Shown in pieces: positions 2,474 to 29,427 of a stretch of DNA of 37,252 nt; positions within the stretch are counted from its first letter, which is position 1, and each line of letters opens with the position of its first letter. The position numbers and the translations under genes were made by a program. The notes under the pieces were generated by a model. That model saw only the letters and a list, made by a program, of their open reading frames with translations. It did not search any database and was not told where the DNA came from. Source of the DNA: Patescibacteria group bacterium (GTDB lineage Bacteria > Patescibacteriota > Microgenomatia > Levybacterales > UBA12049); the NCBI GenBank assembly GCA_038058335.1, contig JBBUBI010000028.1, positions 1-37,252 of the forward strand, in the 5' to 3' direction.

Positions 2474-2677
2474 TTACACTTTAATAGTAAACAGCTTTTC
2501 AACGCTTATGTCAAAAAATTTTGCAATTTTTATAGCAAGAGCTACTGACGGAGTATAGTTTCCCTTCTCAATTGCAATAATCGTCTGCCTCGTCACTCCA
2601 ATCTCAGCAGCCAATTCCTCTTGAGTAATTTTTTTACTGTTTCTATATTTTTGTACAAAATTAAGAATTTCAGTCAT
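2474..2677 (-). CDS. XRE-family helix-turn-helix transcriptional regulator
   Basis: 67 aa with ...[41 protein letters not shown]..., a classic HTH_3 pattern. Confidence 0.85.
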
Positions 2678-2686
2678 CTTCTTTGC

Positions 2687-2695
2687 ATTTTAACA
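2687..2695 (-). promoter_or_regulatory. extended -10 box (TGTTAAAAT) for the XRE gene
   Basis: Minus-strand TGTTAAAAT lies 9 nt upstream of the ATG at 2677. No SD in between. Confidence 0.45.
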
Positions 2696-2741
2696 AATTT
2701 CCTTTCGTATCGCTAAGTACCTTCACCTTCAAAGGAGAATT

Positions 2742-2750
2742 TGCTATAAT
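2742..2750 (+). promoter_or_regulatory. extended -10 box (TGCTATAAT) for the 2758 ORF; predicts a leaderless mRNA
   Basis: Perfect TGnTATAAT, with 7 nt between the hexamer and the ATG at 2758. It is divergent from the XRE promoter. Confidence 0.5.
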
Positions 2751-2757
2751 ATCCGCC

Positions 2758-3243
2758 ATGCAACCACTCGAAGCAAGAAATACAAATATTGAAATGCATC
2801 CGGAAAGAAGAGTTGCCGAAATAGCGAAAGATTTTTTTATTGAAGCTAGCATTGGCAATCCTTTTTCGTTAGTAGGACAAGCCGCACGTATCGCAACCAG
2901 ATGCAGATACCTTGGTGTTAGGCCAGATTTTTTGGGGACAGACTTGCTAAGCCAACCGGACTTGATTTCAGAAATTCAAATAAAGGGAACTGAAATTCAT
3001 TCAGGGAGAAATATAAAACCTATCGGAGTGGGACAATTAAGGGATACAATAGAAATCGACTTCGCTTTTGCACAGGAATTGCTAATCCTAGATGCTGCTG
3101 AGCTAGAAAAATTATATACCCGTTTTGAGAATACTCCACCATCGCCGCAAAAAGAAGCCGAGCTGCTAGGCGAGGCTCAAAAAGCAATCGCATATGCAAA
3201 GCTACGCTTAAATTACATACGAGAAGACAAAGAAACATTTTAA
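2758..3243 (+). CDS. hypothetical protein (161 aa from the internal ATG)
   Basis: ORF-track ORF 2683..3243. The first 25 codons overlap the divergent XRE promoter and start, so I prefer ATG 2758 (MQPLEARN...), which sits just after a TGCTATAAT box. No recognisable motif. Confidence 0.5.
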   Translation: MQPLEARNTNIEMHPERRVAEIAKDFFIEASIGNPFSLVGQAARIATRCRYLGVRPDFLGTDLLSQPDLISEIQIKGTEIHSGRNIKPIGVGQLRDTIEIDFAFAQELLILDAAELEKLYTRFENTPPSPQKEAELLGEAQKAIAYAKLRLNYIREDKETF

Positions 3244-11223: not shown

Positions 11224-11255
11224 TTAAAAATCGAATCTAGCCTCAAAATTGCCTA

Positions 11256-11285
11256 TTGACAAGATGTTTTAATTATGTGAATAAT
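11256..11285 (+). promoter_or_regulatory. sigma70-like promoter of pilin copy 1 (TTGACA-N18-AATAAT)
   Basis: TTGACA at 11256..11261 and AATAAT at 11280..11285. Only 10 nt separate the -10 box from the ATG, with no SD. Confidence 0.55.
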
Positions 11286-11295
11286 TAATACATAC

Positions 11296-11802
11296 ATGAA
11301 AACAAATCTGCCCAGATTAGTTAAGACTCAATCTTCAAAAGGTTTTACTCTTATTGAGCTTCTCGTCGTTATCGGTATCCTAGCAATTCTTCTCTCGATC
11401 GTTCTTATCGCCATTAACCCAGCAAGACAATTTGGTCAGGCAAATGACACAAAAAGACAAAGTGCTGTAACTCAAATACTTAATGCAGTCGGAGCATATC
11501 ATGCTGATAATAAGGGGCAATTGCCACTTAATATTCCAGTATCACCAGCAGCAGCAGCACAAATAGCATGGGACGGTGTTACACCAAATGCACCAGGTAA
11601 TATCTGCGCTGCTCTATTGGGAACTGCTGGTGATGGATATATCCCTGCTCTACCAGTAGATCCAACACTTACTGGAGGAGACATTACTAATTGCGCAGCT
11701 TTATATGCTACTGGATACTTTATAGTGCAGGATGCAAACGGAAGAGTAACGGTATCAGCTCCAAGCTCAGAAGTTACCACTCCAATTACGATAACCCGAT
11801 AA
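11296..11802 (+). CDS. type IV major pilin, copy 1
   Basis: ...SSKG|FTLIELLVVIGILAILLSIVLIAINP, a canonical class III signal and alpha-1 helix. Two Cys (NICAAL...TNCAAL) could form a C-terminal disulfide loop. Confidence 0.9.
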   Translation: MKTNLPRLVKTQSSKGFTLIELLVVIGILAILLSIVLIAINPARQFGQANDTKRQSAVTQILNAVGAYHADNKGQLPLNIPVSPAAAAQIAWDGVTPNAPGNICAALLGTAGDGYIPALPVDPTLTGGDITNCAALYATGYFIVQDANGRVTVSAPSSEVTTPITITR

Positions 11803-11818
11803 TTTACACATACAATCT

Positions 11819-12049
11819 ATGGCAGTAAAAAAATCGTCTGAACATTCTAAGGGCAAGCATCACGAACACAATCTGAAAGCTTTAACTTCATTTATGGTAT
11901 TAGCAATTGGCTTCGGAGTCTTTTTTCTTTTCTACCAAAATCAAGAAAATCTTACAGACCCATCTATTGTTAAGCAATTCATATTACTCGTAATTGTGCT
12001 ATCAGCGTTTTTATTTGGTCTATTATATCTTCTCAATCCTAAAAAATAG
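11819..12049 (+). CDS. small two-TM membrane protein downstream of the pilin
   Basis: 76-aa ORF with two hydrophobic segments. A truncated remnant of it follows pilin copy 2. Confidence 0.55.
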   Translation: MAVKKSSEHSKGKHHEHNLKALTSFMVLAIGFGVFFLFYQNQENLTDPSIVKQFILLVIVLSAFLFGLLYLLNPKK

Positions 12050-12187
12050 TTTATGTAGGATTAGCTCCTTTGTGATTATTTTTCTAAGTTATTACCATAG
12101 AAACTAATGTAATTTATATTTAAAAATAAAATATTTAATTAAAATTTTCCAACTACCTATTCCCTAATCTAGCCTCAAAATTGCCTA

Positions 12188-12217
12188 TTGACAAGATGTT
12201 TTAATTATGTGAATAAT
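12188..12217 (+). promoter_or_regulatory. sigma70-like promoter of pilin copy 2
   Basis: Identical TTGACA-N18-AATAAT element, duplicated with the cassette. Confidence 0.55.
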
Positions 12218-12227
12218 TAATACATAC

Positions 12228-12740
12228 ATGAAAAGAAATCTGCCCAGATTAGTTAAGACTCAATCTTCAAAGGGTTTTACATTAATTGAACTTCTAGTCG
12301 TAATCGGAATTTTAGCAATCCTTCTCTCTATTGTTCTTATAGCCATTAACCCAGCAAGACAATTTGGTCAGGCAAATGACACAAAAAGACAAAGCGCTGT
12401 AACTCAAATACTTAATGCAGTCGGAGCATATCATGCTGATAATAAAGGGCAATTGCCACCTAATATTCCAGTAGGAGTCGTTGGAACCAATGAGGTTCAA
12501 ATCGCATGGGATGGTATTACTGCAAATGCACCAGGTAATATTTGCTCTGCTCTATTGGGAACTGCTGGTGATGGATATATCCCTGCTCTACCAGTAGATC
12601 CAACGCTTACTGGAGGAGACATTACTAATTGCTCAATTGCATATGCTACTGGATACTTTATAGTACAGGATGCAAACGGAAGAGTAACAGTAATTGCTCC
12701 AAGCTCAGAAGTTACCACTCCAATTCAAATAACCAGATAA
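12228..12740 (+). CDS. type IV major pilin, copy 2 (variant central region)
   Basis: The N-terminal ~77 aa are almost identical to copy 1. The central segment differs (PNIPVGVVGTNEVQIAWDGITANA vs LNIPVSPAAAAQIAWDGVTPNA). Confidence 0.9.
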   Translation: MKRNLPRLVKTQSSKGFTLIELLVVIGILAILLSIVLIAINPARQFGQANDTKRQSAVTQILNAVGAYHADNKGQLPPNIPVGVVGTNEVQIAWDGITANAPGNICSALLGTAGDGYIPALPVDPTLTGGDITNCSIAYATGYFIVQDANGRVTVIAPSSEVTTPIQITR

Positions 12741-12756
12741 TTTATACATATAATCT

Positions 12757-12871
12757 ATGGCAGTAAAAAAATCTTACAGATCCATCTATTGTTAAGCAAT
12801 TCATTTTACTCGTAATTGTGCTATCTGCCTTTCTATTTGGACTTCTTTATCTTCTTAATCCAAAAAAATAA
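12757..12871 (+). pseudogene. deletion remnant of the small membrane ORF
   Basis: ATGGCAGTAAAAAAATC is joined directly to TTACAGA.... This lacks the 116 nt present at 11836..11951 in copy 1, shifts the frame and gives MAVKKSYRSIYC-stop. Confidence 0.8.
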
Positions 12872-14838: not shown

Positions 14839-14928
14839 ATTAAAGTTATCTTAATGTTAAAAGATAAACTCAGTCAATTATGCAAATAATAATCAAAAGA
14901 TATCAGTCTAGACCAATTTAAAAAAATG

Positions 14929-15000
14929 AGCGGGAAACGGGGATCGAACCCGCGACCTTCTCGTTGGCAACGAGACGCTCTACCACTGAGCTACTCCCGC
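14929..15000 (-). tRNA. tRNA-Gly(GCC)
   Basis: Reverse complement GCGGGAGTAGCTCAGTGGTAGAGCG TCTCG TTGCCAA CGAGA AGGTC GCGGGTTCGATCCCCGT TTCCCGC T folds as a cloverleaf with U73. No CCA encoded. Confidence 0.9.
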
Positions 15001-15093
15001 ACTTCGTCACTTCGTTCCTCAGTGCAAGCTTTTTATAATAACACAATTGCTTATTCTGAGCAAAATCAGTTTACCCTGAGCAAAGTGAATGAG

Positions 15094-15166
15094 TGCCGAG
15101 AGTGTGAGTCGAACACACATGGCCTGTTCTTCAGACAGGTGCCTTGACCACCTTGGCTATCTCGGC
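15094..15166 (-). tRNA. tRNA-Phe(GAA)
   Basis: Reverse complement GCCGAGA TA GCCAAGGTGGTCAAGGC A CCTGT CTGAAGA ACAGG CCAT GTGTG TTCGACT CACAC TCTCGGC A. Atypical D-arm. No CCA encoded. Confidence 0.8.
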
Positions 15167-15192
15167 TTGCTTGCATTTCATTTGTCAAAATG

Positions 15193-15265
15193 TGGGCGAT
15201 GCAGGTCTCGAACCCGCGACATTTGCGATGTAAACGCAACGCTCTACCAACTGAGCTAATCGCCC
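15193..15265 (-). tRNA. tRNA-Val(TAC)
   Basis: Reverse complement GGGCGAT TA GCTCAGTTGGTAGAGC G TTGCG TTTACAT CGCAA ATGTC GCGGG TTCGAGA CCTGC ATCGCCC A. No CCA encoded. Confidence 0.9.
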
Positions 15266-15288
15266 TTAACTATAACATAGAGTGTTTG

Positions 15289-15375
15289 TACCGAGGACAG
15301 GACTTGAACCTGCACGCCTTATTTAAGGGCACAAGAACCTCAATCTTGCGTGTCTACCAATTTCACCACCTCGGC
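15289..15375 (-). tRNA. tRNA-Leu(GAG)
   Basis: Reverse complement GCCGAGGTGGTGAAATTGGTAGACACG CAAGA TTGAGGT TCTTG with a long variable arm, then GCAGGTTCAAGTCCTGT CCTCGGT A. No CCA encoded. Confidence 0.88.
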
Positions 15376-15384
15376 AGGATAAAC

Positions 15385-15393
15385 ATTATAGCA
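15385..15393 (-). promoter_or_regulatory. extended -10 box (TGCTATAAT) inside the tRNA array, upstream of tRNA-Leu(GAG)
   Basis: Minus-strand TGCTATAAT. The predicted start is about 3 nt upstream of the mature 5' end at 15375. It overlaps a perfect 15-nt palindrome, tagcaaaatttgcta (15389..15403). Confidence 0.4.
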
Positions 15394-15408
15394 AAATTTG
15401 CTAAATTG

Positions 15409-15491
15409 TGCCCGAGGGGAGACTTGAACTCCCATGCTCTTGCGAGCACTAACTCCTGAAGCTAGCGCGTCTACCGTTTCGCCACCCGGGC
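15409..15491 (-). tRNA. tRNA-Leu(CAG)
   Basis: Reverse complement GCCCGGGTGGCGAAACGGTAGACGCG CTAGC TTCAGGA GTTAG with a long variable arm, then GGGAGTTCAAGTCTCCC CTCGGGC A. No CCA encoded. A TGATAAAAT box lies about 20 nt upstream. Confidence 0.88.
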
Positions 15492-23436: not shown

Positions 23437-23667
23437 GTGACTAGATTTCAGCAGGCTACTAAAGCAGTCAGAGATATATTGATCAATAATTTTCTCGGAG
23501 GCCTTGCATGGGCAGTAGGAGTAACAATAGGATTTTCCCTTATTATTTTTCTTCTTACAACTGTACTTAAGAACGTAAATTGGATTCCCTTCATAGGCGA
23601 TTTTCTATCAAATCTCACAAGCTATGTACTTTCAAATTTACAAACCAATCCTCAATTGGTAAAATAG
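23437..23667 (+). CDS. small two-TM membrane protein
   Basis: 76-aa ORF with a GTG start and two hydrophobic segments. Confidence 0.5.
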   Translation: MTRFQQATKAVRDILINNFLGGLAWAVGVTIGFSLIIFLLTTVLKNVNWIPFIGDFLSNLTSYVLSNLQTNPQLVK

Positions 23668-23675
23668 TCCCTCAT

Positions 23676-24890
23676 ATGGATAATTCGAAAAATCATCAGC
23701 AGATAGGAAAAGAACAAGATCTATTTACATTCTCTGATCTCGTAGGCTCCGGACTTCCTCTTTTTACACCCAAGGGCACAGTTCTCAAGCGAGTTTTGAA
23801 TACATACATAGATGATCTTCTGCAGAAAGAAGGGTACCAATTTGTGTCTATTCCTCATATCGCAAAAAAAGATTTGTATGAGAAGTCCGGACATCTTGAG
23901 AAATTCTCAGAAGATATGTTTCCCGTGATGAAGGCAAAAGGCAGAGAGTATATGCTAAAACCCGCAAATTGCCCGCACCACATTCAGATTTTTGCCCGAA
24001 AACCATGGTCATATAGAGATATGCCCCAAAGATACGCTGAAAGCACCACTCAGTACAGATCAGAACTCTCAGGCGAGCTTGAGGGACTTGCAAGAGTACT
24101 TTCGCTGACACTCGATGACTCGCATGTGTTTGCAAGGCCTGATCAAGTGCGAGAGGAGTTCAGAAAAGCACTAAGCCTAAACCAGCAGATGCTGAAGGAT
24201 TTCAAGCTTGAAAATTGGATAAGACTCTCAGCTTGGGATCCGAAGGATAAAGCAAAATACTTGGGAGATGAAAAAACCTGGGAGGAAATGCAAAGCCTTA
24301 TGGAAGATATACTTAAAGAACTTAAGATAAATTACAAAAAAGTAGAAGGAGAAGCAGCCTTTTACGGACCCAAGATGGATCTTATGATCACAGACTCTCT
24401 AGGCAAGGAATGGCAGCTTTCAACTATCCAGGTTGATTTCAACCTTCCTGCAAGATTTGAACTTTCCTACGTAGATGAAAATGGTCAGGATCAAAGACCG
24501 GTAATGCTTCATAGAGCAACCTTTGGATCATACGAAAGATTCCTTGCAATGATAATTGAGCATTTTCAAGGAGCTTTTCCGCTTTGGCTCTCTCCAGTAC
24601 AAGCAGTGATTCTTCCGATTGCAGACAGACATGCCGAGAAAGCAAACGAGATCAAAGATACGCTTTTGGAAGCAGGGATTCGGGTTGAGGCAGACAGCAG
24701 ATCAGAAACTCTTCAATCAAAAATTCGGCAGGTGTCTTTACAAAAAGTGCCCTACATGGGTATAATAGGGGACAAAGAAATTGAAACTAAAAGCCTATCT
24801 ATCCGCACGAGGGATGGAAAAGATCTAGGACAATTAGAAATTTCTAAGTTTCTTAATTTAATTAAAGAAGAAATTGATAAAAAGACATAA
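23676..24890 (+). CDS. thrS: threonyl-tRNA synthetase, catalytic plus anticodon-binding domains only
   Basis: From ATG 23676: MDNSKNHQQIGKEQDLFTF... aligns with the start of the class II core of bacterial ThrRS. Zn ligand contexts CPHH, DDSH and LHRA are present. The ORF-track start at 23580 overlaps the upstream gene. A TGGTAAAAT box lies 10 nt upstream of the ATG. Confidence 0.88.
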   Translation: MDNSKNHQQIGKEQDLFTFSDLVGSGLPLFTPKGTVLKRVLNTYIDDLLQKEGYQFVSIPHIAKKDLYEKSGHLEKFSEDMFPVMKAKGREYMLKPANCPHHIQIFARKPWSYRDMPQRYAESTTQYRSELSGELEGLARVLSLTLDDSHVFARPDQVREEFRKALSLNQQMLKDFKLENWIRLSAWDPKDKAKYLGDEKTWEEMQSLMEDILKELKINYKKVEGEAAFYGPKMDLMITDSLGKEWQLSTIQVDFNLPARFELSYVDENGQDQRPVMLHRATFGSYERFLAMIIEHFQGAFPLWLSPVQAVILPIADRHAEKANEIKDTLLEAGIRVEADSRSETLQSKIRQVSLQKVPYMGIIGDKEIETKSLSIRTRDGKDLGQLEISKFLNLIKEEIDKKT

Positions 24891-25708: not shown

Positions 25709-26059
25709 ATGCCAAGAGTAAAACGAGGAGTCGTATCAAGAAGAAAGCACAATAAGCTTCACAGCCTTACAAAGGGATACAGAGGTACCAAGAGTAGACT
25801 GGTTAAGGCTGCAAAAGAAGCAGAGCTTCATGCCAGGTCTTATGCTTATCATGGAAGAAAACTCAAGAAACGAGACTTCAGAACGCTTTGGATTACTCGT
25901 ATTGCAGAAGCGGCCAAAAAGGAAGGCCTGTCATACAGCGTACTCATGAATAAGCTTAGAAAATCCAAAATTGACCTTGACAGAAAAATCTTAAGCGATC
26001 TTGTCACAAACGATCCCGAAGTATTCAAAAAGGTTGTTGACTCAGTTCGAAGCGCCTGA
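25709..26059 (+). CDS. rplT: ribosomal protein L20
   Basis: MPRVKRGVVSRRKHNKLHSLTKGYRG...YAYHGRKLKKRDFRTLWITRI.... Confidence 0.93.
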   Translation: MPRVKRGVVSRRKHNKLHSLTKGYRGTKSRLVKAAKEAELHARSYAYHGRKLKKRDFRTLWITRIAEAAKKEGLSYSVLMNKLRKSKIDLDRKILSDLVTNDPEVFKKVVDSVRSA

Positions 26060-26065
26060 TAGAAT
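26057..26065 (+). promoter_or_regulatory. extended -10 box (TGATAGAAT) overlapping the rplT stop; drives the leader peptide
   Basis: TAGAAT at 26060..26065, with 6 nt to the A of ATG 26072 and no SD. Confidence 0.5.
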
Positions 26066-26071
26066 ATCTTT

Positions 26072-26116
26072 ATGCAAAAGCAAATATTTTTTTCATTTTA
26101 TTTTACCTTCGCTTAG
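26072..26116 (+). CDS. Phe-rich leader peptide (pheM-like), 14 aa
   Basis: ATG CAA AAG CAA ATA TTT TTT TCA TTT TAT TTT ACC TTC GCT TAG translates to MQKQIFFSFYFTFA: 5 Phe in 14 residues. The stop codon lies in the loop of the first hairpin, directly upstream of pheS-pheT. Confidence 0.65.
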   Translation: MQKQIFFSFYFTFA

Positions 26117-26132
26117 GCGAGGGTAGTTTTTT
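26104..26132 (+). terminator. hairpin 1:2 plus U6 (rplT terminator / attenuator segments 1 and 2)
   Basis: taccttcgc (26104..26112) pairs with gcgagggta (26117..26125): 9 bp including one G-U pair, with loop ttag. It is followed by gtttttt. Confidence 0.65.
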
Positions 26133-26143
26133 GCAAAAAATAC

Positions 26144-26190
26144 ACCTTCGCACTTCCGGAAAATTTCGGAAAACAAGCGAGGGTTTTTTT
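26144..26190 (+). terminator. hairpin 3:4 plus U7 (attenuator terminator)
   Basis: accttcgc (26144..26151) pairs with gcgagggt (26177..26184). An inner helix forms between ttccg and cggaa (26154..26158 / 26167..26171). The run then reads ttttttt. Segment 3 has the same sequence as segment 1, so it can also pair with segment 2. Confidence 0.65.
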
Positions 26191-26211
26191 ATTTTAAGGA
26201 GGTATGGATGC

Positions 26212-26400
26212 ATGGGTAAAGAAAATATAGAAAATTCAATGCTTGTAACTAGGGTTATTACTGCTATGAACACATTGATTGACGCGAAGAGAACAAGTCC
26301 GGAGAGCGCTTTACACGAAAAAGCATTGATAAGAGTTGCGGGAATGGCAGCAAACGAATCCGGTGCGATTGAAATAATGTCTAGGCTGCAAGAAGGCTAG
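26212..26400 (+). CDS. hypothetical 62-aa protein between the attenuator and pheS
   Basis: AAGGAGG at 26196..26202, 9 nt upstream of ATG 26212. It reads MGKENIENSMLVTRVITAMNTLIDAKR.... The ORF-track start at 26131 would read through the terminator. Confidence 0.5.
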   Translation: MGKENIENSMLVTRVITAMNTLIDAKRTSPESALHEKALIRVAGMAANESGAIEIMSRLQEG

Positions 26401-26406
26401 TAAGTA

Positions 26407-26415
26407 TGGTATTCT
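26407..26415 (+). promoter_or_regulatory. extended -10 box (TGGTATTCT); leaderless geometry for pheS
   Basis: TATTCT at 26410..26415, with 6 nt to the A of ATG 26422. Confidence 0.35.
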
Positions 26416-26421
26416 TATTTT

Positions 26422-27459
26422 ATGGAAGAAGAGCTTATTGGAATTAAAAATTCTGCGGTTTCGCTGATACTTGAAGCTGTAGATCCCAAAGAAATTGAAG
26501 AGATAAAAATTCAATTTCTTGGACGAAGCGGAAGGCTGACAACTGCGATTAAGGAAATCCCCAAACTTTCCAAAGAAAAAATACCTGATGTAGGAAGACT
26601 TGCCAATGAAGTCAAGAAAACCATTGAAGAAACTCTTGAGGAAAAAGACGCAACTCTAAGACAAATTAAAACTCAAAGAGTAAAAGAAAAAATAGACACT
26701 TCGCTTCCTGGAGTAAAACCCAATATCGGACATCTTCACCCGCTTACTCAGGTTATTTACGACGTTGTAGATGTTTTCAAGAGTCTTGGCTATCAAGCTA
26801 CTGATGGTCCTGAAATAGAAACAGATTATTATAATTTCGAAGCACTTAATATCCCAAAAGATCATCCTGCGCGGGATACGCAACAAACATTTTACCTTGA
26901 TACAAGAAATTCAAAGGTAAATCCAGGAGAAATAATACTCCGAACTCAAACTTCAGCAATGCAAGGAAGAGTTATGGAAAAGACAAAGCCTCCGGTACGG
27001 GTAATAATCCCAGGCAAATGTTTCAGATACGAGCAAGTAGATGCATCACACGGATTTGAGTTTTGGCAAGTTGAAGGATTTTGTGTTGATGAAAATATCA
27101 AGCTGACTGACCTCTTCGGCACTATTGATTATGTACTCCGAAAGCTAATGGGCGAAGATATAAAACTAAAATTTGCCACAACCAACTTTCCATTCGTCGA
27201 GCCGGGAGTTGACACCTATATGGAATGTACTGTTTGCAAAGGAAAGGGCTGTAGCTTCTGCAAGCAGTCCGGATGGAGCGAGATTATGCCGGCCGGCATG
27301 ATACACCCAAACGTGCTAAAAGCTGTAGGCTATGACAGTAAGAAAGTCTCAGGCTTTGCCTTCGCCATCGGGCTTTCAAGACTTGTCACGCTTAGGTATC
27401 AAATGGAAGACCTGCGTCTTTTAATCAATCCGGACTTAAGAATTCTAGAACAATTTTAA
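26422..27459 (+). CDS. pheS: phenylalanyl-tRNA synthetase alpha subunit
   Basis: Class II motifs, for example ...HPARDTQQTFYL...GKCFRYEQVDASHGFEFWQVEG...GFAFAIGLSRL.... Confidence 0.93.
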   Translation: MEEELIGIKNSAVSLILEAVDPKEIEEIKIQFLGRSGRLTTAIKEIPKLSKEKIPDVGRLANEVKKTIEETLEEKDATLRQIKTQRVKEKIDTSLPGVKPNIGHLHPLTQVIYDVVDVFKSLGYQATDGPEIETDYYNFEALNIPKDHPARDTQQTFYLDTRNSKVNPGEIILRTQTSAMQGRVMEKTKPPVRVIIPGKCFRYEQVDASHGFEFWQVEGFCVDENIKLTDLFGTIDYVLRKLMGEDIKLKFATTNFPFVEPGVDTYMECTVCKGKGCSFCKQSGWSEIMPAGMIHPNVLKAVGYDSKKVSGFAFAIGLSRLVTLRYQMEDLRLLINPDLRILEQF

Positions 27460-27543: not shown

Positions 27544-29427
27544 ATGCTAGCGCCTTTATCCTGGCTTAAAGAATACGTTGAAATCAAATCTACTCCTGAG
27601 AAATTGGGAGACAGACTTACCGAGGTGGGACTCGGAACAGAAAGAATTGAAAAAACAAAAGACGATGTGATTTTTGATTTTGAAATTACACCGAATAGGC
27701 CAGATCTACTTTCAATAATTGGTATCGCAAGAGAAATCGCAGCAGTAGAGAACAAAACTATTAAGCTTCCTAAGCTATCTAATCTTAAAAGTATAAAACC
27801 AGAGAAAATACTTCCTCTTAAAATCATTTCAGATTTTAAAATTAATCCAAGATTTACCGGAATAATAATTGACGGAATTACCGTCAAGGACTCGCCGGAG
27901 TGGCTCAAGGAAAAGCTGATCAAAATGGGACAACGTCCGATAAATAATATTGTAGACATAACAAATTACGTAATGCTTGAACTGGGTAATCCCATCCATG
28001 CTTTTGATTTTAAAAAAATAAAAGGCGCGACCATTAAAGTTCATAAGACTTTAGGCGGAGAAAAATTTACAAGTGTTGATGGCATATCTTATCATCTGCC
28101 AAACGGGGCCGTAGTGATATCAGACGAGGAGAAAATTATAGATCTTTGCGGAATAAAAGGCGGAGAAAATTCAGGAACTTATGAAAGTACAAAAACCATC
28201 TTCCTGAGAGCTCCTGTTGAGCTTCCATCTCTTGTACGCAAAACTTCACAATCTCTAGGACTTCGCTCTGAAGCTTCAAGTATTTTCGAAAGGGGAGTAA
28301 ACGCCGGAGGCGCTGTGGAAGCTCTTTCCCGATGCACCGAGCTGATTTTGGAAATTGCAGGCGGAGAAATAGCAAGTCCTCTTTACGATATTAAAAAGCA
28401 GGACTTTAAGCCCTGGCTTGTTCAACTTGATCTTACAAGACTGAACAAGATTCTGGGCATTGAGATTCCAAAAACCAAAGTTGTAGAGATACTTGAGAGT
28501 TTGAATTTAAAAACTAAGAAAATATCAGAAGAAAAACTTAGAGTTACAATTCCTACTTACAGAAATGACCTCCAAATCGAAGAAGATATAATTGAAGAAG
28601 TTGCAAGGCTATATGGATATAACAATTTTCCAAAAACCCTGCCTTCAGGACAAATACCAACACAGACAGTTCCATATTTTAAAGATTATAACCTTGAAGA
28701 AAAGGTAAAACAGATATTTAAAGCAGGCGGATTTTCCGAAGTTTATACTTATAGCTTGGTTTCGGAAAATGATTTTGAAGAAAATGAAATTAATCCCGAT
28801 AAAGCATTACGAGTAGACAATCCTGTCAGTCGGGAATTTGAGTATCTGAGGACTACTCACAAAATAAATTTAAGGAAAGCTTTTGCTCAAAATCTGCCAA
28901 ACTCCGATAGAGTAAGTCTTTTTGAGCTTGGCAAAGTTTATCTTGGCTCATCAATTGACAAAACTGATGAGCCCTATTTTCTTTCAGGCATATCAAATAG
29001 TAAAAGCTATTTTGAAATAAAAGGGCTTCTTGAGAAACTCTTTGAAGAATTTGGAGTCAAAGACCAAGTAATAGACTATATTCAAATTCTAGAAGAAGGC
29101 ATATTCTTCGAACTAAACTTTGATGAGTTTATATCGAAAATAAACCTAAGCAAGAAATTTATTCCTCTTCCAAAATACCCTCCGATAATTGAGGACATTA
29201 CTCTTACAGTTACAAACGAAACCCCAACGGGTGATATAATTGAGGAAATTAGAAAACAAAGTTTGCTTATTGAGAATGTAACACTAAAAGATACATTTGA
29301 AAATAATAAAACATTTCACATTGTCTACCAAAACAAAGAAGGAAATTTGACTACCAAAGAGGTCGCAAAAATAAGAGAACAACTCCTAAAATCCCTAGAA
29401 GAAAAATTCAAAATTAAGATCGGTTAA
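27544..29427 (+). CDS. pheT: phenylalanyl-tRNA synthetase beta subunit, short form
   Basis: MLAPLSWLKEYVEI... (B1 domain), then directly ...FEITPNRPDLLSIIGIAREIA.... B3/4, B5 and the C-terminal anticodon-binding-like region are present. At 627 aa, the OB-fold tRNA-binding insert appears absent. Confidence 0.88.
   Translation: MLAPLSWLKEYVEIKSTPEKLGDRLTEVGLGTERIEKTKDDVIFDFEITPNRPDLLSIIGIAREIAAVENKTIKLPKLSNLKSIKPEKILPLKIISDFKINPRFTGIIIDGITVKDSPEWLKEKLIKMGQRPINNIVDITNYVMLELGNPIHAFDFKKIKGATIKVHKTLGGEKFTSVDGISYHLPNGAVVISDEEKIIDLCGIKGGENSGTYESTKTIFLRAPVELPSLVRKTSQSLGLRSEASSIFERGVNAGGAVEALSRCTELILEIAGGEIASPLYDIKKQDFKPWLVQLDLTRLNKILGIEIPKTKVVEILESLNLKTKKISEEKLRVTIPTYRNDLQIEEDIIEEVARLYGYNNFPKTLPSGQIPTQTVPYFKDYNLEEKVKQIFKAGGFSEVYTYSLVSENDFEENEINPDKALRVDNPVSREFEYLRTTHKINLRKAFAQNLPNSDRVSLFELGKVYLGSSIDKTDEPYFLSGISNSKSYFEIKGLLEKLFEEFGVKDQVIDYIQILEEGIFFELNFDEFISKINLSKKFIPLPKYPPIIEDITLTVTNETPTGDIIEEIRKQSLLIENVTLKDTFENNKTFHIVYQNKEGNLTTKEVAKIREQLLKSLEEKFKIKIG

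Follow-up and report, generated by a model that had tools for sequence, protein, structure and literature searches.

A candidate ribosome-mediated transcription attenuator with a phenylalanine-rich leader between rplT and pheS of a Patescibacteria group bacterium

How might a bacterium with few recognisable regulators adjust the expression of an aminoacyl-tRNA synthetase to the charging of its transfer RNA (tRNA)? The question is raised by a stretch of 37,252 nucleotides (nt) from a Patescibacteria group bacterium (contig JBBUBI010000028.1 of assembly GCA_038058335.1), referred to here as the window, in which the genes run in the order thrS (short form), infC, rpmI, rplT, a presumptive control element, an open reading frame (ORF) of 62 amino acids (aa), pheS and pheT (short form). 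Bacteria of the Candidate Phyla Radiation (CPR) have tiny genomes, largely lack amino-acid biosynthesis and are uncultured, and their recognisable regulators are few; to our knowledge, almost nothing has been learned about how their genes are regulated. An earlier note, made from the letters of the window, had interpreted the junction between rplT and pheS as a ribosome-mediated attenuator resembling Escherichia coli pheM. A computational analysis of sequence features, folding energies, conservation and promoter geometry supports that interpretation. Given a leader ORF rich in phenylalanine (Phe), mutually exclusive RNA pairings, a U-tailed terminator and conservation of this design in relatives, the element is very probably a transcription attenuator of the trp/his/pheM type that senses charged tRNA-Phe. 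The genes pheS and pheT are presumed to be its targets. The element itself is composed of the following features.

26072 to 26116, forward strand: leader ORF of 14 codons encoding MQKQIFFSFYFTFA, from the ATG at 26072 to the TAG at 26114-26116.
26105 to 26112, forward strand: segment 1, ACCTTCGC, which forms the codons Thr-Phe-Ala of the leader and the 5' arm of hairpin 1:2 (constraint folding, relatives).
26117 to 26124, forward strand: segment 2, GCGAGGGT, which starts right after the TAG and has segment 1 or segment 3 as its partner (constraint folding, relatives).
26127 to 26140, forward strand: U6-GC-A6 mini-hairpin in the spacer between segments 2 and 3 (U6 at 26127-26132, A6 at 26135-26140), which lengthens the 2:3 antiterminator (folding).
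26144 to 26151, forward strand: segment 3, ACCTTCGC, which has segment 2 (antiterminator) or segment 4 (terminator) as its partner (constraint folding, relatives).
26154 to 26171, forward strand: inner terminator stem-loop with a 7-base-pair stem, UUCCGGA / UUCGGAA (folding; stem kept in relatives).
26177 to 26190, forward strand: segment 4, GCGAGGGT, and the T-run, forming the 3' arm and the tail of an intrinsic terminator (100% paired in 7 sequences).

Read codon by codon, the leader is ATG CAA AAG CAA ATA TTT TTT TCA TTT TAT TTT ACC TTC GCT TAG, which gives MQKQIFFSFYFTFA five Phe residues and one Tyr among 14. These Phe codons match the genes that lie downstream, pheS and pheT. The Phe fraction of the leader, 0.36, is the highest among the 413 mini-ORFs in the window that begin with ATG. 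The binomial probability of such a Phe content is 4e-4 per ORF, and since ~0.2 Phe-rich mini-ORFs of this kind are expected per window by chance, the significance of the leader must rest on its context and its conservation. The leader has no Shine-Dalgarno (SD) site; a plausible route to its translation is provided by an AUG placed by a promoter, by the leaderless style of expression described below and by a frame that is preserved in relatives. Hairpin 1 has a loop of 4 nt (26113-26116), and the TAG of the leader falls inside it.

The arms of the RNA structure are built from two 8-mers, ACCTTCGC (26105 and 26144) and GCGAGGGT (26117 and 26177), which have no other copies on either strand of the window. 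Two exact copies of each arm generate three mutually exclusive helices of comparable stability: a 1:2 anti-antiterminator (-14.9 kcal/mol), a 2:3 antiterminator (-14.0 to -15.4 kcal/mol) and a 3:4 terminator (-18.0 to -18.6 kcal/mol), as estimated by constraint folding. The terminator is followed by a U-run and lies upstream of pheS and pheT. When the 141-nt region was compared with shuffled sequences, it folded with a z score of -5.8, and none of 200 shuffles folded equally well. Much of this had been described in the earlier note: on re-reading, every coordinate held for the 14-codon Phe-rich leader at 26072-26116, with its TAG in the loop of hairpin 1, and likewise for segments 1-4, U6 and A6, while constrained folding bore out the proposed exclusivity of 1:2, 2:3 and 3:4. 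The U7 described after 3:4 is a run of seven T (26184-26190), of which the first doubles as the last base of segment 4. The U6 described after 1:2 is present in the window but is not kept in relatives.

From these features we infer a transcription start site, ribosome stalling, a kinetic choice among helices and an effect on pheST expression. In the proposed mechanism, a promoter overlapping the end of rplT would start the RNA at, or one base from, the leader AUG, and because the start falls there, a 70S ribosome would load on the leaderless 5' end. If Phe-tRNA-Phe is plentiful, the ribosome would reach the TAG abutting segment 2 and either cover segment 2 or depart, letting 1:2 re-form; segment 3 would then join segment 4, and RNA polymerase would terminate at the T-run at 26184-26190. 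If Phe-tRNA-Phe is scarce, the ribosome would stall with the codon for Phe9, Tyr10 or Phe11 in the A site. The footprint of the stalled ribosome would mask segment 1 and not segment 2, and 2:3 would form once segment 3 has been made, pre-empting 3:4 and allowing polymerase to continue into the 62-aa ORF and pheST. Footprint arithmetic, which assumes that the ribosome reaches ~12 nt beyond the first A-site base, agrees with this register: stalls at codons 9-11 cover 26105-26114 (segment 1), and once the stop codon is reached the masked stretch is 26117-26126 (segment 2). Untranslated transcripts from the rplT operon would fold into 1:2 and 3:4 and terminate, and the element would therefore double as the terminator of that operon.

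A promoter scan predicted a promoter close to the leader.

26037 to 26065, forward strand: predicted leader promoter, consisting of TTGACT (26037-26042), a 17-nt spacer and the extended -10 element TGaTAGAAT (26057-26065), with 10/12 matches and the TG.

The -10 hexamer ends at 26065, 6 nt before the ATG at 26072. Transcription is predicted to start at or beside A26072, and the leader mRNA is predicted to be leaderless, as the earlier note had guessed. The -35 element sits inside the 3' end of rplT, and part of its conservation is explained by the Val-Asp codons of L20 that encode it. All nine leaders checked have the -35/17/-10 layout, TTGA(C/G)N-17-TAnnnT; the -10 element ends 6-7 nt before the leader ATG in 8/9 and 10 nt before it in L171. 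A -10 element followed by 6-8 nt and an ATG is common at operon-first genes of the window (2758, 3350, 23028 and 31775 on the reverse strand, 31846, and pheS at 26422), and operon-internal genes carry GGAGG instead. At pheS and several other operon-first genes, the -10 element is extended (TGnTAnnnT) and stands 6-8 nt ahead of the start codon. This genome seems to make common use of leaderless mRNAs. Since the operon-first genes share this arrangement, a leaderless leader would be the expected expression style for this organism.

Evidence for selection on the element comes from related genomes, on which the earlier note had staked its interpretation. Scans with PheS yielded at least seven close relatives in a genome collection and at least three in a metagenome collection, and most of the useful loci were obtained via exact-protein look-ups. 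Loci of the same design, referred to as type 1, comprise six further complete loci (L084, L167, L168, L169, L170 and L171; PheS 85-97% identical) and the partial locus L083. The mini-ORF and the repeated arms are kept in the six complete relatives. In L084 and L167-L171 all four segments are retained, and 1:2, 2:3 and 3:4 are each 94-100% paired across seven sequences. The few substitutions in the arms are transitions that preserve every alternative pairing (U-G to U-A, C-G to U-G): segment 2 has either A or G where its partner is U, and segment 1 has C replaced by U where its partner is G. L084 carries G-to-A at one and the same position of segments 2 and 4. The leader variants MQKQTFFSFYFTFA, MKKLNKTIWFYFTFA, MQNTNRTFWFYFTFA and MQKKNKFYIIHFTFA, together with the 25-codon MLMELQLFKFYFIQHQNLGEEFTFA, are open and rich in Phe or other aromatic residues and end in FTFA before a stop that always lies in the loop of hairpin 1. 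Leader lengths are 14, 15 and 25 codons, so that all insertions and deletions, here of 3 and 33 nt, amount to whole codons.

Parts of the type-1 structure that vary do so in an informative way. The inner terminator stem varies compensatorily (UUCCGGA/UUCGGAA, AUCCC/GGGAU, CCCG/CGGG, CCCC/GGGG, AUCCG/CGGAU), and the U6-7 after 3:4 is invariant across relatives. By comparison, the U-run after hairpin 1 is variable, with 3-6 U at a changing distance, and in L083 it is replaced by a 20-nt palindrome rich in G and C. For this reason the possibility that hairpin 1 and its U6 form a conserved second terminator was rejected; the role that fits hairpin 1 better is that of an anti-antiterminator or of a pause helix. 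In several relatives, other spacer helices replace the U6-A6 pairing and lengthen 2:3 to -15 to -17 kcal/mol. In L085 (85%), a deletion of ~60 nt took the -10 element, the leader and segments 1-2, leaving 3:4 and U6 as a plain rplT terminator.

Other related loci carry Phe-rich leaders of different design. Type 2 is represented by L165/L166 and L172 (PheS 84-87%), whose leaders are MHSKKIFFVFFFNSRTGE and MFRNKQIFIFSCLAGRQAFFSQTGE, each followed by a stop codon; the coordinates are 1351-1407 in L165 and 1341-1418 in L172. Because the ATG of a type-2 leader and the rplT stop overlap (ATGnnTAG), such a leader is probably translationally coupled to rplT and probably has no promoter of its own. Inside the leader ORF, just past the Phe run, lies the 5' arm of the type-2 terminator (AACUCCC), which suggests that a stalled ribosome would directly occlude the terminator. 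The leader of L172 contains a 21-nt palindromic insertion, in frame. Neither L165 nor L172 has a small ORF, and the leader stands directly upstream of pheS.

Type 3 consists of L006 together with L173 and L174, which have 82% PheS identity to L006 (coordinates: L006 3703-3952; L173 1225-1478; L174 ~786-1039). The leader, MQVPTIT(Q/R)(T/A)AFFKFFFT and a stop codon, is followed by GGGGAGGT, (A/C)(C/T)CTCCCC, and GGG(G)AG(G)T with U5-6. The two lineages differ by compensatory changes, which fall in the terminator as well as in a stem formed around the Phe codons. A tRNA-Phe(GAA) gene starts 7-11 nt past the U-run, and pheS comes next with its own -10 element. In L173, the module lies ~400 nt from rplT with another terminator in between, and its promoter, TTGACA-17-TATACT (11/12), ends 7 nt before the ATG. 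No second promoter-like site was found between the leader promoter and tRNA-Phe in L173 or L006. With a predicted leaderless leader and a terminator/antiterminator switch directly before tRNA-Phe, type 3 has the look of leader-peptide attenuation applied to a tRNA gene. No leader was found at L002, L003, L007, L086 and L175, nor at L001, L004 and L005, where a different gene precedes pheS, and L087 has a weak version of the leader with 3 Phe. The strongest argument that selection acts on the Phe codons is this recurrence, since Phe-rich leaders occur in three unrelated sequence contexts and always beside Phe-decoding genes.

What, then, would polymerase reach after reading through the terminator? 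The genes that flank the element, and the features between its T-run and pheS, are as follows.

25709 to 26059, forward strand: rplT, encoding ribosomal protein L20, 116 aa (NCBIfam TIGR01032, 128 bits).
26196 to 26400, forward strand: SD sequence AAGGAGG (26196-26202) and the 62-aa ORF (26212-26400), the first cistron past the attenuator.
26407 to 26415, forward strand: pheS's own promoter, with the extended -10 element TGgTATTCT 6 nt before the ATG at 26422; the layout is kept in relatives.
26422 to 27459, forward strand: pheS (NCBIfam TIGR00468).
27544 to 29427, forward strand: pheT, 627 aa (NCBIfam TIGR00472).

The final gene of thrS-infC-rpmI-rplT ends with a TGA at 26057-26059. The earlier note took pheS to be the first gene after the attenuator, having missed the SD-led 62-aa ORF at 26212-26400 that precedes it. 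This ORF contains no Phe. Its SD sequence, start and length are kept in L083 and L084, and a search of 5.8 billion proteins returned two homologues only; it matched no Pfam or NCBIfam family. The ratio of nonsynonymous to synonymous substitution rates (dN/dS) is 0.3-0.7 for the ORF, compared with 0.07 for pheS. At each type-1 locus the T-run is directly followed by an SD-led ORF, with lengths of 62, 67, 100, 100, 121 and 125 aa, and three of these ORFs are clearly homologous. Three small ORFs of 67-125 aa share the four-Cys motif ITPC..C..AT..GC...IGPIY...VCP.Q.G, and the others are barely alignable.

The sequence TGnTAnnnT-N6-8-ATG precedes pheS in 16 of the 21 relatives checked, regardless of whether the attenuator is present, and the pheS mRNA made from this promoter is predicted to be leaderless. 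Because pheS has its own promoter and the 62-aa ORF intervenes, the attenuator probably adds to a basal level of pheST transcription. The most likely arrangement is one in which transcription induced by Phe starvation would supplement a basal, leaderless pheS mRNA, the attenuator not being the sole control. Translation of pheS from the read-through RNA by re-initiation, 21 nt past the stop of the small ORF, is a possibility. Regarding control of pheST as first proposed, the logic of attenuation is supported; the promoter at 26407-26415 had been overlooked, and control by the attenuator is probably not exclusive.

Several observations weigh against attenuation of pheST as described here. Segment 1 would stay uncovered if the ribosome stalled at Phe6 or Phe7. 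When a ribosome mask was applied in equilibrium folding, the antiterminator was the minimum-energy fold at Phe6, Phe7 and Phe9 and not at Tyr10 or Phe11. At equilibrium, moreover, 3:4 is more stable than 2:3, so that the model needs a kinetic, co-transcriptional choice between them; the trp and pheM attenuators likewise depend on kinetic, co-transcriptional control. In the same mask simulation, the antiterminator of the validated E. coli pheM attenuator was predicted at 2/7 stall positions. The register of stall and stop is accommodated by the footprint arithmetic, with equilibrium folds, which do not decide a kinetic mechanism, ambiguous for the window as for the E. coli control. Double-sided covariation was seen in 0/26 pairs of the main arms among the seven type-1 sequences, where shuffle controls are uninformative because the alignment columns barely vary. 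This outcome speaks neither for nor against the model, and support for the helices comes from conservation and one-sided changes. Recent common ancestry could account for part of the type-1 conservation, given that the seven sequences are closely related. Lastly, the pheS promoter is conserved and pheS has no SD sequence, and read-through RNA may add little PheS unless ribosomes re-initiate after the small ORF.

The features downstream of the T-run allow for an alternative in which the attenuator is real but acts on the SD-led small ORF (26212-26400 and its counterparts), with pheS expressed from its own leaderless promoter. In its favour, nearly all relatives keep TGnTAnnnT-N6-ATG before pheS with or without an attenuator, the pheS AUG on read-through RNA would be internal and has no SD sequence, and an SD-led ORF directly follows the T-run at every type-1 locus. 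This alternative is nevertheless unlikely. The small ORFs are poorly conserved (62-125 aa, three homologous, dN/dS 0.3-0.7), the type-2 loci L165 and L172 have no small ORF yet place a Phe leader directly before pheS, and the type-3 loci have tRNA-Phe and pheS downstream. Phe decoding, and not a small protein, is common to all three designs.

Two further alternatives dispense with attenuation altogether. The hairpins might be constitutive tandem terminators of thrS-infC-rpmI-rplT that arose by duplication of the arms, with the Phe ORF as a T-rich by-product. Hairpin 1 with its U6 fits the terminator consensus, 3:4 is found as a plain rplT terminator in L085, the arms show no double-sided covariation, and equally Phe-rich mini-ORFs are expected at ~0.2 per window by chance. 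However, the ORF is still open in all seven type-1 sequences, although its length differs by 3 or 33 nt, and in type 2, where 21 nt have been inserted. Relatives do not keep the U-run of hairpin 1, and L083 has other sequence in its place. A promoter at fixed spacing to the ATG, upstream of both hairpins, would make no sense for a mere terminator. Unrelated Phe leaders are found in L165/L172 and in L006/L173, and in L173 the leader is served by its own promoter, with ~400 nt and another terminator between it and rplT. Taken together, these data make tandem terminators very improbable. Alternatively, the mini-ORF might encode a functional small hydrophobic peptide, such as a membrane peptide or a toxin, with the hairpins ending its short transcript. 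The ORF is indeed conserved, has its own promoter and has a hydrophobic, aromatic product, but its conserved properties are limited to richness in Phe or aromatic residues and a C-terminal TFA that is segment 1 itself, and its N-terminal half and length vary freely. Sister lineages have Phe-rich peptides of unrelated sequence at the same locus, and the location is always beside Phe-decoding genes, leaving a functional peptide the least probable of the explanations considered.

The element has parallels with E. coli pheM. Both leaders stand in an infC-rpmI-rplT, leader, pheS-pheT neighbourhood; pheM and MQKQIFFSFYFTFA each run to 14 codons, of which 5 specify Phe, codon 6 being the first of these. 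The 14-aa PheM sequence given in the earlier note proved correct when compared with the E. coli locus. Segment 2 near-duplicates segment 4 in both systems (GGAGGCU twice in E. coli, GCGAGGGT twice in the window), and both have a U-tailed terminator and behave similarly under the ribosome mask. The two differ in that E. coli pheM is preceded by a separate rplT terminator, a 5' untranslated region and a ribosome-binding region, whereas in the window the rplT stop falls within the promoter and a leaderless leader is predicted. The window also differs in having an SD-led small ORF and a second, pheS-proximal promoter after the terminator, and its host belongs to the CPR and not to the gamma-proteobacteria. 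Homology to the pheM family (Rfam RF01859, Phe_leader) was rejected: the full-length match scores 16.7 bits (E = 4), well short of the gathering score of 55 that places a sequence in the family. None of ten relatives reached this 55-bit threshold, and E. coli pheM scored 75 bits in the same run. The likeness to pheM first drawn for this locus thus extends to the logic and the neighbourhood and not to descent, and the sequence comparison indicates that the element is an analogue, not a homologue, of pheM.

Other mechanisms that link synthetase expression to tRNA charging provide further points of comparison. In Firmicutes, the pheS T-box follows the same logic, in that scarce or uncharged tRNA-Phe raises read-through into pheST at a terminator/antiterminator switch. 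T-boxes bind tRNA directly, and translation is not required. A T-box riboswitch was rejected as an explanation of the window element, since Rfam at gathering thresholds detected only tRNAs across the whole window and a permissive scan of 25950-26450 returned sub-threshold noise only, which included Phe_leader at 16.7 bits and no T-box. Classical leader-peptide attenuators have been predicted upstream of trpS and leuS in Streptomyces by comparative analysis only (PMC1262725). Like the window element, these are predicted to control a synthetase gene by ribosome-mediated attenuation outside the gamma-proteobacteria, but they involve other amino acids, another phylum and unrelated sequences. In mycobacteria, stalling on the leaderless polycysteine small ORFs of the "Cys ribulon" remodels the downstream RNA and acts on translation (10.1101/834739). 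The window resembles that system in having a first cistron that is rich in one amino acid and, by prediction, leaderless; it differs in that the element ends in a canonical hairpin and a U-run, for which reason transcription termination is the likely output here. The SD sequence at 26196-26202 is not part of any predicted helix. Searches of the literature, with incomplete coverage, gave no account of leader-peptide attenuation in CPR/Patescibacteria or before tRNA genes, which is weak evidence of novelty.

The host can be placed from the window's own genes. Among the matches listed in the scan of the genome collection, those nearest to PheS belong to metagenome-assembled genomes of Candidatus Levybacteria / Microgenomates, and an identical sequence is present on contigs from Hainich groundwater, of which wells H41, H52 and H32 yielded this genome and its relatives, from which it follows that the host is a CPR (Patescibacteria) bacterium. 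The window has a G+C content of ~38%. ThrRS (23580-24890; ~400-436 aa) matches positions 170-564 only of the bacterial profile, and the match of PheT (27544-29427) begins at profile position 157; given these starting positions, both enzymes are without their usual N-terminal domains. Synthetases of this kind are typical of reduced CPR genomes. The window's own tRNA-Phe gene, at 15093-15166, is not behind the attenuator. It lies in a cluster of five tRNA genes on the reverse strand (14928-15491: Gly, Phe-GAA, Val, Leu, Leu). Elsewhere in the window, at 11234-12773, there is a tandem duplication of ~930 base pairs with two copies that are 91-94% identical, each containing an ORF of ~175 aa (11281-11802 and 12213-12740).

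Insertions were also observed at the related loci. A perfect GC-rich palindrome of 20-21 nt, CCTGCCTGCCGGCAGGCAGG, interrupts the attenuator spacer at L083 23-42 and, with the frame preserved, the leader ORF at L172 1372-1392 and the pheS coding region at L085 3738-3757, the last giving 351-aa PheS variants. It is absent from the window and may be a small mobile palindromic element. In L171, a NUDIX hydrolase gene (2540-3004) is inserted between pheS and pheT.

Considered across lineages, the Levybacteria / Microgenomates clade may possess fast-diversifying, mostly leaderless Phe-leader attenuators of at least three unrelated architectures that tune phenylalanyl-tRNA synthetase and, in L006, L173 and L174, tRNA-Phe, although we advance this wider proposal tentatively and rate it slightly below an even chance. 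The sequence evidence places the window element as a convergent addition to a known class of attenuator and not in a new class of mechanism. Independent evolution seems to have produced the E. coli solution again at an identical junction of genes, and the element would extend the range of leaderless sensory ORFs beyond the Actinobacteria. If the proposal is correct, this would be the first ribosome-mediated attenuation in CPR bacteria, and hence evidence for transcription-translation coupling in them, as well as the first instance of a tRNA gene controlled by a leader-peptide attenuator. A conserved Phe leader attenuator would mean that CPR bacteria monitor tRNA charging via the translating ribosome, and that their transcription and translation are coupled tightly enough for kinetic attenuation.

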